DNA of 26,099 nucleotides from a virus (IMGVR_UViG_2526164602_000011:1-26099), one strand, 5' to 3'. Positions 15,001 through 21,000 are shown, counted from the first letter of the stretch. Made by a program: the numbers.

Positions 15001-18000
15001 GCTGTGACTGTGCTTCCGGCGTCACTTCCTGTTGTGGGCGAATGACTTCTCGTATTGCCTGAAACTGTTGTTCTTCAGTCTCGGTGCGCCCCTCTTTCTG
15101 GCTGAGTCTGCGGTATTCCTCAAGCAGTTCAGAACGCGGCTTCGCCTTCAGCTCATTCATCACAGCCTGTCGCTTCGTCTGTTCGTCCAGTTCATTCAAC
15201 AACTGGCTGGCAGCTTCCCGGCGATGAGCTGCGGATGCGTCACCCTCTGTTGCCATATCCGCATCAGCATACTGCTCCAGAAGCTGCTCGCGATTCATGC
15301 CCTGCATGGATTCACGCTGCTGCGCCACCGGATCAACAGATTCTGGTTGCGGGGCTGCGTCGTCCTGCTGCACGGTTTCAGCATCACGCATGGCGGTTTC
15401 TTCTGCGGCCTGACGTCTGCCACGATATCCGGCAACCGCACCGAATGGAGCCCCCATCGCAGCACCAAAGGCTGCACCTTCGATCGTTGCGTCAGCCACG
15501 CCCTCCCACGGTGACACACCCATTCCGGCGGTCTCACGCAATGCCGTGTTTTCCTGATAGCGTGAATAGCCGCCCTGCGCCGCATTAATCGCCCCCTGTT
15601 CCGTGGCATTTCTGACAATGCCGCTTTTAACGGTCTTCGCTGTGCCTCGTGTCACCAGATTAAACAGTTGTGCGTCACCCAGTTTTGCCGCCATGGCATT
15701 CACAGCCAGCAATTCAGGATCGGTTGCCAGCTGCGCGCGCACCTCATCGGCAACACGCTCTTTTGCCAGATCCATTTTCTGGCGATCAGTAAGCTGTGCG
15801 TGCTGCGGGTCGGCGTCAATGGACAAAAACGTCTGCTGAAATTTCGGTGACTGCGCCAGCTCAGAGTAATCAGCATTAAGAACAGCATCTGCTGCCGCCA
15901 TTGCACTCTGCCCCTGTGCACTTACAGTGGAATGGGTGATCAGGCCCGCCTGGAATAAATCCGGCATTTTTTTATCGACAGCTTCTGCTGCCAGTGCCGT
16001 GGCTCTTTCCGGCTGCATCCCTGCCGCGATGTATTTTTTCTCCAGCCCGGCGGTCAGCATTTTTCGCAGTGTGACATCACCCACCTTTCTAGCCACACCG
16101 CCAGCAACCATATCAGGTACAAGCGCACCAATCAGGTTTACACCCTTCGCCACCCAGACCGCAGAATCATTATAGCCTTCGGTCATCGGCGTATTCAGCG
16201 CACGAACTGCACCCGGCGACATCTTACCGGTCAGCCATTCATCAGTGGCTTTGGCACCATCACTGACAGCCTTACCGGTTGCCTTCAGACCTTTACCGAC
16301 AATATCAGTAACCGCGTTTTTGCCATCAGGCAGGGTATCGATGACCTCATCAGCCCCCCTGCTGCCACCGGCAAAAATATCCTGCACAGTTGCGACACCC
16401 GGCAGCCCCATACGGCTGAACTCATTTAAAATACGCGCCCCTGTTTTTACCGGGCTCTGAATCATCGCATCACCGAGTCCACGGGCCATTTCCCCTGTTC
16501 CCCGGACGGACTGGGCGAAACCTTTACCCATTGTTGGCAATACATCGCCCAGGCTGAACGACGTACTGTTATCCTTCCAGCGATTCGGATCAGAGAAAAA
16601 TGCTTCATAGCTGTCAGTTTCGCCGGGTTGCTGAATGTTCAGGCTGTTACGATTCTGGTTACCGAGTTGCGCCTCAGGACGCTGTTCCTCTGAATAGGCC
16701 ATACAGACTCCATAAAAAAACCCGGCACAATGGCCGGGCATCAGGAAATGGTATTAATGGAATATCGTGAATTACTGGGCGTAATTCTGTTTCAGTCCAC
16801 GGATAAACTGAGATGCAGATGAAGCACTTTCATCTCTGGCCTGTTCCCCCCTGGCCTTTTGAATACGGAGAAAATTCGCATACCCGTTCTCCAGCAATTT
16901 CTGATTCTGAGGTTCCAGCATTTCAGGCTGACGGGCCGCTACATTTCTGGCAAATGACAGCTTGTCAGGATCATCTCCCGCCCAGTTGATAACCTGTTGC
17001 TGAAGTTTTTGTTGCTGAATTTTCTGTTGATGCGGTTGTGAACCAGTCGCAGCATAATATTCATCCACCGCAGCCTGAGCATTACCGCCATTCTTGATCG
17101 CGTCCGCCGCTACGTTGCTGGCCCCCTTCTGAAGCTCTTTCAGAGAAAGTCCCTGCTGCTTCGGCATAAAATAACCATAATTTTTCGATATCTCTGCAAA
17201 TTTGCTGCGATCCCTGACCTGAGCGATAGCCTTATCAACGGGTATCGCCAGCACGGTTTGATCATCAGGGTGCGCACTGCCGTATTCTGTTACAGGTTTA
17301 TGCGCGGTGGAGCCATCGCTGTATGTGAGATCAAGGCCAATAAGTACGTACCCTTCCTGCTGCGCTGGTACGATACTGCCAATCCTGGCCTCTTTTATCG
17401 TTTTGTCCCCGGTTGAATCAGGCATGCCAATACGCTGTTGTAGTTCCGGGGCAAACACGCCGGAAAGCACATCGAGATTTTCCGGGGTATTCAGCGAATC
17501 GATCGCCATGTCCGGCTTATCACCAAAGATTTTTTGCAGGTTGATCACGGCCTGACCCGCTTTCGCTGCATAGCCTTCGTTTGACATAAGAATTAATGGA
17601 TGTCCCTTTGGCAGCTGCCCGAACAGACGCGTTGCAGCCTCCTGATCGCCAGCCTCAATTGCTTTTCCAAGCGCTTCCATTAGTGGCTGGCTATGGGCAA
17701 TCATATCGTTATACTCAAGCCGTCGCTGGTTGTATTTCTGCAACTGGAGTCGCTGCTGCTCCATACCCAGTGACGCATTCCGGTAATTCTGGTTAGCGTT
17801 AAACTCCCTCTCCTTCAGTGCATAATTACGGTCGTCAACTTTGGCTCTGTAATCAAAGTTCCGCTGATCAACGTTTTTATTATGTTCAAACTGAGACTGC
17901 GCAAACTCAAAATCGCGCTCGTTATTTTTCTGTTGCCGGGCAAGCTGTGCTTCACGCAGACCAAGCTCCTTACGACGGGTCATTGCCTGGTCAACGGTGC

Positions 18001-21000
18001 TGAATCCGGCAAGTAACCCCTGTGCAAATCCGCTCATTCACCACTCCTTAAAACAAAGAACCAGCAATGCCGCCAATTACTGCTCCAGCAACAGCACCAA
18101 CAGGACCACCAACGGATGCGCCAATAGCCGCCCCCGTACCAATGCCCGTACCGATATTCTGCTTGTTCTGCGCTTTCTGTTGCGCCGCCATCTGTTTGTT
18201 CGCAGCCTCAATTTCTTCACGTCGTCTGTCTGCGTCACTTATTCCCTGTAATGCCTCACGCCGCGACTGATTTGCAATATCCAGTAAACCGTATCCCATA
18301 TTGCCCCCTTACGCTGCCACCAGTTGGCCGCCAACACTCAGTTTCTGTCTTGCCGGTGCAGAAGCCCCCGTCAGAATATTCATCTGGCGATCCTGTTCGG
18401 CTTCACGGATACCATTTTTCGCGCCAGCAATTGCCAGGGCATTACGTAACCCCAGCGTATTACTGTCGGGATTATCCGGGCGGTTTACCCCGTATCTCGC
18501 CATCTGGTTATCCTGCGCCATCTGCGCTGTACGGAGACTGGAAGTGGCAAGGCCTCCCACCCGTGCAAGCTGTGCATTCATCAGACTGTTGTTCTCCCCA
18601 AGGTCAGCCAGCCTTGCCACGCGGGGCAAATATCTGGTTCGCCAGTCGTCGTATTGTTGGCGTGTCAGCGCTGCTGACGTCTGCCAGTCACCCTGTGGGC
18701 GGTCTGCTCCTGAATAACCAGCCCTTGCGAGAGTTTCGTATTTGCCATACTCCATAATTACAGTCTCCAGTTCTGAGCCTGATGCTGAATGGCATTAGCG
18801 CCGGTGCCAGGTGTTTTAGCACCGCCACTTCCTCCGCTACCGCCAGCCTTATGCATCGCATATGCACCTGCCGCACCCAGACCAGCGCCAACAAGAGAGG
18901 CTCGCCCCTGCTGTTTCGTAAACGCCGCCTGTGCATCCGATTTAGCTTTTGCCAGACTGCTGTCTGCCAGAGAGTTAAAACTCTGTAACGCATCCGCCTT
19001 CTGACCAGAACCGAGAGCAGCAACATCCTGTAGCCCGGCAACATACTTATCTGCCTGCGATACCTGCCCCCGTGTGGTTGTGTCAATCTGCCCGGTTACC
19101 TGGTCACTCTGGTTCGCATTCATTACCGCATTAAAACGACCACTGGATGGGTCAACGCCGGACTGAGCAAGATTACCCGCAAGCTCCTTCCGTGCTTCGC
19201 CAAACTGTTTCTGATACCCCAGATTTGTGGTGCCAGCAATATTGTCGTACTGCTGCTCACTGTTCAGGTCATCGACCTTTTCCATGAAGTTATCTTCAGC
19301 CGGGCGGAGGATATTTTTGTAATCCTGCCACCCTTTCCAGGCCACTTCTTCCTGTGCTATTTGCGCTGCTGTTGGTTTTACTTTGGTATCACCACCGCCT
19401 TTACTTCCACCCATAATGGCCCCCTGGATAACAAAAAACCCTGCCGGAGCAGGGTCAGAATGTGAATTACAATGTTGGTTTAAACACAATGATGAAAACT
19501 GTAGCAGTCAGACCGCTATCCTGAACACCATGAAGCCATCCTCATCATCCGGCATTCGCTCAAAGCCCAGTCGTTTTCCCAGCCGGATAAATCCCCGCCT
19601 TGCCGTATGGAACTCAGCCCAGCGTCCGCCAGCCAGATGGGTTAATGTCTTCACCTCCGGCAGGTAACGCTCAACGCTGTTACTCCCCGTACACACGCCC
19701 AGCAACACCAGAACATAAGGGATACCATCAGCACTGAGCACAGAACGCAGCACCAAAAAGCCATCAGGTGCCTCAAAACAAAACGCCTGCTTTTTAAGGC
19801 AGGCGTCTTTAACTTCATTCATAAATTCAGGGTTGCGGGAATTTCTCACAACACGCTGCATATACCAGAGAATTTTATCGTTCATTCTCTCACCTGAAAC
19901 GGGTGCCATATCGGCTGAACCTCAGCAACCAGTTGACGGGGACTCTCGTCCCCGTCGCGGTTTTCCTACTGCTTACACTGTAAGAACGCCGCAAACTCCG
20001 CTCCCCACAAATTCAGCCGGAACTCACACAGTGAACCGTGCAACATCCAGATGGTGAAGATAACCGTCATGCAAATTGTGACGGTGATAAGCGATTTTTG
20101 CGACATAGCGCTTGACTCCTTTTACAGAGAGGCGCTAACCTTCTACTTGCTTAAGGTACGAAGTGTTAGGGCCTCGGGTTAACGTTAAGTTGACTCGGGG
20201 CCTTTCCACATCAGGCCTTCAGGTTCACCCTCCAGCCATCAGCCGAAAGGCACCCACGCATAATTTACGGTTTTTGCCCTGTACGGGCAATAAAAAACCC
20301 GCCATCACAGCGGGTAGTAAACGGTTACCGGATACAGGTCAGAATTTCAGGCCAATGCCAGCAGTAACGCCACTCGTGCGCCAGTCGCCAGAGCCGGAAC
20401 CTTCGTAAGCCACATCCAGTGTAACACTCTCATTCAGGTTAAACTGTGCACCTGCAGCCCACGCAAGGGAGGTTTTTTTCGTGCTGTTGCTTTCAGAAAA
20501 TCCGCCACTACTGTTAATATTGTCCTTAATTTTCAGGTCAGCGCTAACTTTAGCAACGCCCATCCCTGCCATCGCATATAAACTCATGTACTGATTAACC
20601 CGCCATGAAGGCCCCGCTAACAGACTCCAGTAATTCGCCCTGATATCCGTTCTGGCAGAAGCTGCCGGATTCTTAATCTTCCTGGTATGATCGGCTGACT
20701 GCACATCAATAAATGTCTGTGAGTTAGTGAGAGAACGCGTCCATGTAAAAGAGGTGATAACGCCAAAATCATCCGTTATCTCGTAGCGATACCTGATATT
20801 AATGCCCTGTGGATTTTTATCCTTGCCTTCATATCCACTGACCCGACCATCTGTATATTCGCCCAATGAAGAAAAGTAGTTTCTGTTGACGAAATGACTG
20901 AAAGTCTCCCTGTTATGAGCAGTCGCATCCTTTACAAAATCCTTCAGTCCCGGAAACTGAAAGTGCGCATACCCCAGAGAAATTGTATGCTCTCCTTCTG

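Follow-up and report, generated by a model that had tools for sequence, protein, structure and literature searches.

Virion proteins encoded beside the giant gene of the Stx2 podophage 933W as candidate components of an ejection apparatus

The window analyzed here, meaning the whole 26,099-nucleotide (nt) stretch of viral DNA IMGVR_UViG_2526164602_000011:1-26099, is 100% identical to the Shiga toxin 2 (Stx2) podophage 933W (Traversvirus, Sepvirinae). Four of its genes, for proteins of 218, 148, 83 and 421 amino acids (aa), lie directly upstream of a giant gene for a 2793-aa polyvalent protein. On balance, these four proteins and the giant are probably carried inside the virion and together constitute the ejection apparatus of 933W/GP4-type podophages. 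The genes, the phenotypes of the deletions and the unprocessed proteomic data had been public before; new here are the connection between them, corrected bounds of the operon, the direction of an insertion beside it, a wider family of such cassettes, the probable paralogy of the 218-aa and 148-aa proteins, and a predicted architecture of the 421-aa protein. Coordinates are positions in the whole window, and the cassette genes are all on the minus strand (Table 1).

Each of the four genes matched one PHROG of unknown function end to end (E-values from 1e-45 to 1e-213), and the locus was found in 186 phage records, nearly all of them from Stx-converting phages, so we regard the four as real genes. 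A preliminary description, made from the sequence alone, had presented them as a co-oriented, tightly packed group with Shine-Dalgarno (SD) sites beside the giant gene. The listing of open reading frames (ORFs) and a spacing script bore this out: the intergenic gaps were 2, 9 and 10 nt, and purine-rich SD-like sequences (AGGGGG, GGAG, AAGGGGG and AAGGAG) were present 5-9 nt 5′ of each ATG. The reported Gly/Ala/Gln-rich make-up was also seen in the composition, with Gly and Ala together accounting for 29%, 25%, 36% and 19% of the 218-, 148-, 83- and 421-aa proteins, respectively, and Gln for 8-11%; the glycine zipper was in the 83-aa protein and the Gly/Ser tail (GGSGGSGG) in the 218-aa protein. 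Scans with Pfam, NCBIfam and PHROG assigned the four proteins to families of unknown function only, with no enzyme or defence domain.

Proteins in the virion

The preliminary description had proposed mass spectrometry of purified virions as a check. Such data exist in a 2026 preprint on phage phi24B (doi 10.64898/2026.04.10.717836), which reports a cryo-electron microscopy (cryo-EM) model and a virion proteome. The model comprises a T=9 capsid, the portal, two adaptor rings, the nozzle, six fibres and the needle, with a 22-nm tail. The counterparts of the giant and the four smaller proteins (gp47-gp51) are absent from it, and no unassigned tail component is reported (doi 10.64898/2026.04.10.717836).

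The supplementary proteome of purified phi24B virions contains peptides of all four proteins and of the giant, and we confirmed specific peptides. About 40% of the particles in the preprint's sample were "ejected" ones. The numbers of peptide-spectrum matches (PSMs; total/batch) in the supplementary table were 1634/179 for gp48 (421 aa), 523/82 for gp51 (218 aa), 129/83 for gp50 (148 aa), 13/6 for gp49 (83 aa; listed as an 86-aa ORF) and 10962/746 for the giant gp47, compared with 2226/101 for the portal. In the batch digest gp48 was among the most abundant phage proteins. By the authors' formula, these counts correspond, roughly, to 18-37 copies of gp48, 16-32 of gp51, 24-48 of gp50, 3-6 of gp49 and 11-23 of the giant. 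Adaptors known to be present in 12 copies scored just 2.5-11 copies by the same formula, so the figures for the cassette proteins are not over-estimates. By spectral counts, three of the four proteins were at least as abundant as the 12-copy tail parts. The low count of the 83-aa protein, 12 PSMs of which belong to the peptide EALQGISDADR, is expected because its last ~38 residues have no Lys or Arg.

Two of the proteins seem to be intact in the virion, as judged from their peaks in gel slices: gp48 had its maximum one slice above the peak of the 45-kDa capsid protein, and gp51 in the slices beside a ~24-kDa tail adaptor. The N-terminal peptide of gp48, residues 2-21, was detected, so only the initiator Met is removed.

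The phi24B authors proposed that gp47 is an encapsidated ejection protein because it is abundant yet invisible in the map. Their main text leaves gp48, gp50 and gp51 unmentioned and, by annotation alone, sets "a homolog of a bacteriocin" aside as a contaminant (doi 10.64898/2026.04.10.717836); the 83-aa protein carries the name "bacteriocin" in RefSeq and was discarded for that reason. In the authors' proteome sheet, gp48 is labelled "Transcription factor?" and gp47 "IP?". In these published data, all four proteins and the giant occur in the virion outside the capsid lattice and the tail, from which we infer a location inside the head.

Deletion phenotypes

The genes have been deleted in frame, one by one, in phage Sp5 of strain Sakai by Mondal et al. 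in 2016 (PMC5155283). Deletion of ORF79 (421 aa) or ORF80 (the giant) abolished both plaques and lysogens, and both deletions could be complemented. The mutants nevertheless produced wild-type levels of DNase-protected DNA and heads of normal appearance. Deletion of ORF76 (218 aa) strongly reduced infectivity and lysogenization, with lysogens obtained from concentrated lysates only. Deletions of ORF75 (133 aa), ORF77 (148 aa) and ORF78 (83 aa) behaved as the wild type, and the nozzle and needle genes, ORF70/71, were essential (PMC5155283). Thus, for Sp5 on K-12, a need for infectivity after normal head formation and DNA packaging describes the 421-aa protein and the giant, describes the 218-aa protein in part, and does not describe the 148-aa and 83-aa proteins.

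Conservation and limits of the cassette

The preliminary description had also suggested following the genes across related prophages, and their order proved to be widely conserved. With tblastn, the 421-aa and 218-aa proteins matched only Stx and Shigella phages, about 100 Vibrio phages and the Aeromonas phage phiARM81mr. Both phiARM81mr and the Vibrio phage D80 carry the same genes in the same order. Between phiARM81mr and 933W, identity was 50% for the 218-aa, 46% for the 148-aa, 51% for the 83-aa and 23% for the 421-aa protein, and ~23-29% over parts of the giant. The three small proteins of D80 were 22-40% identical to those of 933W, and the 83-aa protein was 40-52% identical in Aeromonas and Vibrio phages. 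Homologues of the 218-aa protein were also found in prophages of Serratia, Yersinia, Aeromonas, Pseudaeromonas, Photobacterium, Vibrio and Enterovibrio.

A scan of IMG/VR yielded about 38 divergent non-Stx loci, mostly in Aeromonas prophages as judged by protein names. In almost all of them, the genes for the nozzle (~553 aa) and the needle (420-2165 aa) are followed, in tight packing, by homologues of the 133-, 218-, 148-, 83- and 421-aa genes, and the giant gene follows the 421-aa homologue wherever the locus extends far enough. Neither lom nor its accompanying 205-aa gene occupies this position in any of these loci or in the other Aeromonas and Vibrio relatives. The preliminary description had taken the module for an insertion between lom and the early region. 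The direction has to be reversed: because the relatives have the cassette directly after the nozzle and needle genes without lom, lom is the insert and the cassette is not. The gene orders thus indicate that the Stx phages gained lom, together with the 205-aa gene, within a pre-existing tail-and-ejection operon.

The limits first given for the operon, 16772-19489, also needed revision. At one end, 19489 belongs to a TTG-extended ORF only, and the ATG of the 218-aa gene is at 19414. Further upstream, the needle gene and the 218-aa homologue are, in nearly all of the ~38 loci, the immediate neighbours of a gene for a 133-aa homologue (38-44% identical); by synteny, this identifies the 133-aa gene as a sixth conserved member of the cassette. 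The spacer between the 133-aa and 218-aa genes measures 93 nt here and ~8 nt in the non-Stx relatives. It is in this spacer that a terminator had been reported, and a terminator-like hairpin is indeed found there; this hairpin and a second one, before the probable start of the giant gene, are matches in a consensus scan only. The stored part of the phi24B proteome file contained no peptides of the 133-aa protein, which apparently is not a virion protein.

In some Stx2a phages the cassette is interrupted by IS629, as in AP012534.1 (Stx2a_F765) and KP682386.1 (PA36), which match the window over 16700-19950 and have one gene annotated as a pseudogene. These interrupted cassettes are natural knock-outs that may mark defective prophages.

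Comparison with known ejection systems

A review of ejection proteins (PMC8954989) describes a small operon that encodes, besides a ~200-aa membrane protein, one protein of 431-982 aa and one that is larger; these products reside within the virion, are needed for infectivity and are <10% identical in sequence between phages. The genes studied here are clustered and co-oriented beside tail genes and are ordered from small through medium to largest (218/148/83, 421 and 2793 aa), with gaps of 2, 9, 10 and 69 nt. A candidate membrane-active segment in a small member is present as the glycine zipper of the 83-aa protein, and a weaker one in the 218-aa protein. The 933W cassette fits the pattern of an ejection operon in layout, virion location and genetics.

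Sequence comparison did not extend this analogy. A profile comparison with podovirus ejection and internal-core proteins, as the preliminary description had suggested, gave no detectable homology to P22 gp14/gp7/gp20, T7 gp14 or N4 gp51 (HHalign probabilities of 0.1-2.9%). No PHROG was shared with known ejection proteins, among which N4 gp52, T7 gp15/gp16 and P22 gp16 lay outside the direct comparison.

The closest analogue in layout is the set gp73/gp72/gp71 of the N4-like phage DEV (N4 gp52/gp51/gp50). In both cases, a co-transcribed run of a small membrane-active protein (~150 aa there) and a mid-size all-helical one (521-644 aa there) accompanies a virion-packaged giant (>3000 aa there), and the proteins belong to the virion but to neither its icosahedral nor its tail lattice. 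In DEV these are a pore-forming gp73 of 17.7 kDa, a helical gp72 of 521 aa that forms a ring around the portal, and gp71 of 3398 aa. N4-like phages and phi24B belong to the same broad virion class with T=9 capsids. The systems differ in that the giant is an RNA polymerase in N4-like phages and an LPD polyvalent protein here, and in that there are two small or mid-size proteins there and four here (two of them probable paralogues) plus the 133-aa non-virion gene. Density of the DEV gp72 type around the portal is not reported for phi24B.

With P22 there is a striking parallel of position, since the P22 order is gene 26 (needle), 14, 7, 20, 16. The slot of the 133-aa gene is that of P22 gp14 (~150 aa, DUF2824, named "head morphogenesis") and of gp20 of the Burkholderia phage BcepMigl, an "acyl-CoA N-acyltransferase". 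P22 gp14 is not known to be a virion component. P22 gp7 has 229 aa compared with 218 aa here, gp20 has 471 aa compared with 421-467 aa, and gp16 is the largest of its set. In contrast, P22 has no equivalents of the 148-aa and 83-aa proteins, and its largest protein has only 609 aa. Short alignments were seen between the N-terminal segment of the 218-aa family and mature P22 gp7 (GKGG...AQK..A...Q[WF]....N.L.P[YF]) and, for the motif LPE[VI][KR]...IG...W, between the 133-aa family and P22 gp14. Homology to P22 was rejected as not significant, as HHalign probabilities were 0.9-2.9% (E-values 0.016-0.06) even between profiles and no PHROG was shared; with probabilities below 3%, we treat these alignments as leads only. 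The 133-aa protein looked GNAT-like by eye in its C-terminal half, a resemblance to BcepMigl gp20 and P22 gp14 in position and motif only, and HHalign and Pfam were negative for this assignment.

The T7 proteins gp14/gp15/gp16 are likewise encoded in an operon of rising gene size and are internal virion proteins needed for infectivity but not for DNA packaging, and T7 also has small accessory internal proteins (gp13, gp6.7 and gp7.3). T7 differs in showing no homology to the cassette (HHalign with gp14; fold searches) and in its ordered core stack on the portal, which is visible by cryo-EM; no such stack is reported for phi24B.

Homologues of the nozzle led to deeper relatives in podophages of Ralstonia (Gervaise and related), Burkholderia (Lessievirus), Klebsiella, Serratia, Pseudomonas and Ochrobactrum. 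The Ralstonia phage GP4 is the closest structural homologue of phi24B (doi 10.64898/2026.04.10.717836). In BcepMigl, the genes 3′ of the nozzle encode a 117-aa protein, the 143-aa "acyl-CoA N-acyltransferase", the 331-aa gp19, a phosphoadenosine phosphosulfate (PAPS) reductase, the 538-aa gp17 and a giant "DarB-like" protein. Both gp19 and gp17 are named "virion structural protein", and Gervaise has the same layout (BcepMigl gp20-gp16; Gervaise 1Ca_00024-28). The reductase gene sits between the two "virion structural protein" genes in both phages (BcepMigl gp18, 21602-22330; Gervaise cysH, 20362-21087). We regard the Lessievirus/GP4-like cassette as a true relative, as its nozzle is homologous (27-30% identity), and it also ends with a giant DarB-like gene. 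It differs in holding the PAPS reductase and the named acyl-CoA N-acyltransferase; its proteins are likewise without demonstrated function.

The 218-aa family aligned with gp19 and its Ralstonia counterpart at an HHalign probability of 95.9% (E-value 5e-9). With HMMER, all 26 of its 26 members matched phrog_8003 (best E-value 6e-17) and, in the reverse direction, gp19 matched phrog_611 at 2e-12. On these profile matches, we consider the 218-aa family homologous to phrog_8003, "virion structural protein". The gp19 protein has an N-terminal transmembrane helix and a C-terminal glycine zipper ending in ...GAGIMAF, comparable to ...GGIAGSLF in the 83-aa protein, and the FAQGLxxG peptide at the N-terminus of the 421-aa protein reappears at the N-terminus of gp17 (E-value 0.007, 27 columns). 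In the Lessievirus/GP4-like phages, one protein of 277-331 aa combines a transmembrane helix, a core domain and a C-terminal Gly zipper. This single protein appears to have been split or duplicated into the 218-, 148- and 83-aa proteins in the Stx, Aeromonas and Vibrio phages.

Features of the individual proteins

The 218-aa protein is helical, and a weaker Gly-zipper-like segment lies at residues 172-187, towards its C-terminus. An AlphaFold2 (AF2) monomer model had a mean predicted local distance difference test (pLDDT) score of 45.7, with helices and no confident tertiary structure. Such a poor monomer fold is compatible with folding only within an assembly and proves nothing. The 148-aa family aligned with residues 123-224 of BcepMigl gp19 (HHalign 85.5%, E-value 5.6e-6) and with the 218-aa family (64%, E-value 6.6e-5). 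These two alignments make it probable that the 148-aa protein is a paralogue of the core domain of the 218-aa protein.

The 83-aa protein consists of a charged N-terminal helix and a C-terminal glycine-zipper hydrophobic segment of ~35 residues. Residues 52-83 (Kyte-Doolittle score 1.69) are the sole strongly hydrophobic stretch among the four proteins. The score for Gly-zipper_YMGG in Pfam was 25.7 bits, under the cut-off of 28.9, and NCBIfam also gave only glycine-zipper matches below threshold. A class II bacteriocin, as the RefSeq name has it, was rejected: Bacteriocin_IIc scored 19.7 bits, under its gathering score of 27.1, in the Gly-rich C-terminus only, and the name goes back to this sub-threshold glycine-zipper match. 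HHalign was negative for the idea that the 83-aa protein is the detached C-terminus of gp19.

For the 421-aa protein, an AF2 model from an alignment of 47 sequences was confident, with a pLDDT of 85.7. In it, residues 4-129 form a single helix, and the remainder is made up of a helical bundle, a small beta domain (213-266) and C-terminal helices. Residues 20-129 show a sharp hydrophobic periodicity of 3.5 residues, which indicates a heptad coiled coil with a predicted length of ~16 nm (110 residues x 0.15 nm). Conservation peaks at residues 1-20, a Gly-rich hydrophobic peptide (G[LF]AxG[FL]xxGF; here GFAQGLLAGF), and at 201-260, the beta domain. Sequence, profile and fold searches of PDB and BFVD found no relatives outside its own family, and no fold likeness to solved periplasmic-tunnel proteins was seen. 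The 421-, 218- and 133-aa families, searched as single sequences and as profiles, had no meaningful sequence relatives in PDB. The 421-aa family is small: at 50% identity, a set of 1.84 billion representatives contained 66 clusters of it. One other protein, P0143 (1386 aa), has a homologue of its N-terminal part in the first ~279 residues, fused to a much larger protein. In LC616032 and similar Stx2a phages, the 421-aa homologue matches from residue 82 only (81.5% identity), and the beginning of the coiled coil is replaced or highly divergent in this sublineage.

The giant carries the domains LPD5, LPD1, MuF_C and LPD38 in a Pfam scan, with a C-terminal match to the PHROG "DarB-like antirestriction". 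Its C-terminal ~800 residues are conserved. In contrast to T7, no lytic transglycosylase domain was found in the cassette, the giant having zincin-like LPD5 and MuF_C domains. The annotation of the giant gene probably begins 13 codons too early, because the RefSeq start at 16741 (2806 aa) falls within the second terminator-like hairpin, whereas the ATG at 16702 has an SD sequence (GGAG) 5 nt upstream and agrees with the 2793-aa Sp5 ORF80, the Sp5 primer sequence and the register of phrog_616. The start at 16741 leaves 30 nt between the 421-aa gene and the giant gene, and that at 16702 leaves 69 nt.

Proposed function

In the reading that we favour, the 133-, 218-, 148-, 83- and 421-aa genes and the giant gene form an internal-protein (pre-ejectosome) cassette. 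The 218-, 148-, 83- and 421-aa proteins would be packaged in the T=9 head with the giant, each at a roughly portal-like or higher copy number; disorder or a symmetry mismatch might keep them out of averaged cryo-EM maps. Upon release of the needle at the BamA-bearing outer membrane, the proteins would pass through the tail before the DNA does, prolonging this 22-nm structure across the envelope. Glycine-zipper segments for insertion into membranes would come from the 83-aa protein and from the C-terminal end of the 218-aa protein, the 421-aa protein would provide the ~16-nm coiled coil tipped by its conserved Gly-rich hydrophobic peptide, and the giant may supply a wall-degrading and an inner-membrane or cytoplasmic part.

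Several points weigh against this reading. Exit of the four proteins from the virion and their entry into the envelope are inferred. ORF77 and ORF78 are dispensable in K-12. Particles of the ORF79 and ORF80 mutants were not labelled by an anti-tail-fibre antibody, from which the authors concluded that tail assembly was defective (PMC5155283). A clearly hydrophobic segment is present in the 83-aa protein only, and the AF2 model of the 218-aa protein is unreliable. The copy numbers are rough values from spectral counts, and the phi24B study is a preprint on a sample stored for six months. The preliminary description had taken the four proteins for internal virion or ejection proteins and not enzymes. 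This stands in so far as they have no enzyme domain and are found in virions outside the cryo-EM model, with the 421-aa protein and the giant essential; it does not stand for a need for the 148-aa and 83-aa proteins or for ejection as an observation.

An extended reading, which we hold to be doubtful as a whole, combines these elements into a distinct ejectosome with a 421-aa "harpoon", pores of the 218-, 148- and 83-aa proteins, and the giant, and derives the P22-type and 933W/GP4-type cassettes from one ancestor. In it, the invariant G[LF]AxG[FL]xxGF peptide would insert into a host membrane, in the manner of a viral fusion peptide carried by a ~16-nm stalk; the paralogous 218-aa and 148-aa proteins and the 83-aa glycine-zipper peptide would build pores; and the polyvalent giant would follow. 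The gene at the head of the cassette (133 aa here, P22 gp14/DUF2824, the Lessievirus acyl-CoA N-acyltransferase) could encode a factor for assembly or modification that these cassettes have in common and that is perhaps GNAT-like.

Alternative explanations

The four proteins might instead be packaging adaptors or an internal scaffold that loads, folds or positions the giant as a cargo (an anti-defence or takeover effector), with no conduit through the envelope. This could explain why the genes always lie directly upstream of the giant LPD/DarB-like gene, why the 421-aa and giant deletions have identical phenotypes, and why the small proteins are similar to or above the giant in abundance. The LPD domains of the giant are typical of injected polyvalent effectors, and the antirestriction PHROG at its C-terminus is in line with such a cargo. 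However, the giant and the 421-aa protein were essential in K-12 for phage grown in K-12, where anti-restriction should not matter, and the conserved glycine-zipper and N-terminal hydrophobic peptides would have no obvious role in a purely internal scaffold. We therefore consider this explanation unlikely.

Mondal et al. placed ORF79 and ORF80 under "tail formation" because the anti-tail-fibre antibody failed to label the DNA-filled mutant particles, and the proteins could accordingly be tail-assembly factors or tail components that build the short tail on the filled head. The position of the cassette directly after the nozzle and needle genes in the relatives agrees with this. However, the absence of labelling in immuno-electron microscopy is negative evidence, as even wild-type tails were only "occasionally observed" in the same work (PMC5155283). 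The 22-nm tail of phi24B is fully modelled from the portal, two adaptors, nozzle, fibres and needle, without gp47-51, and ~20-40 copies each of three proteins plus a 310-kDa protein cannot hide in it. A tail role for the cassette seems quite improbable.

That the genes are morons or lysogenic-conversion genes (for example, for a bacteriocin-like peptide) whose products contaminate virion preparations is contradicted and scarcely credible: the RefSeq name of the 83-aa protein, its treatment as a contaminant by the phi24B authors and the terminator-like hairpins on both sides of the block are outweighed by Bacteriocin_IIc and Gly-zipper matches that stay under the Pfam cut-offs, by co-orientation with the structural genes, tight spacing and synteny across genera, by one gene being essential and one important for infectivity, and by three proteins outnumbering known tail proteins in virions.

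Other features of the locus

The coordinates of the cassette and its neighbours are listed in Table 1. A gene-free stretch of 429 nt (19910-20338), in which each strand has hairpins, lies between lom and the 133-aa gene. The cassette region gave no match to an RNA family in Rfam. Rfam matches above the gathering score elsewhere in the window were a sok antitoxin RNA at 6982-7156 (+), 113.5 bits, and the lambda CIII thermoregulator element at 926-984 (+), 88.5 bits.

Table 1. Features of the cassette and its surroundings in the window
Feature	Coordinates	Strand	Names and remarks
Tail nozzle (567 aa) and central needle/fibre (422 aa) genes	22080..25048	-	Size and position match phi24B gp57/gp56
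lom (244 aa) and 205-aa gene	20339..21781	-	Lineage-specific insert between needle gene and cassette
133-aa gene	19508..19909	-	ORF75/ECs1237; phrog_610; heads cassette in relatives
Terminator-like hairpin GACCCTGC-TCCG-GCAGGGTT and T-run	19437..19456	-	Consensus scan; in 93-nt spacer between 133-aa and 218-aa genes
218-aa gene	18758..19414	-	ATG start 19414; ST933Wp68; Sp5 ORF76/ECs1238; phi24B gp51; phrog_611
148-aa gene	18309..18755	-	ST933Wp69; ORF77/ECs1239; phi24B gp50; phrog_596
83-aa gene	18048..18299	-	ST933Wp70; ORF78/ECs1240; phi24B gp49; phrog_594
421-aa gene	16772..18037	-	ST933Wp71; ORF79/ECs1241; phi24B gp48; phrog_601
Second terminator-like hairpin	16720..16739	-	Between 421-aa gene and probable start of giant gene
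Giant gene, 2793-aa polyvalent protein	8321..16702	-	Last of cassette; ORF80/ECs1242; ST933Wp72; phi24B gp47

Significance

Enterohaemorrhagic Escherichia coli owes its danger to toxin genes that are spread by short-tailed Stx2 phages. The favoured reading supplies five candidate proteins for the passage of their DNA across the envelope after binding to BamA, in a cassette kept from phages of Escherichia to those of Aeromonas, Vibrio, Burkholderia and Ralstonia with GP4-like T=9 virions. The peptide evidence was already in a 2026 supplementary table, undiscussed, and one of the proteins had been dismissed over a doubtful "bacteriocin" annotation. This reading would reconcile the "tail formation" genetics of 2016 with the cryo-EM model of 2026. 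The proteins offer concrete targets for blocking the transmission of Stx phages and for work on the delivery of giant polyvalent proteins.

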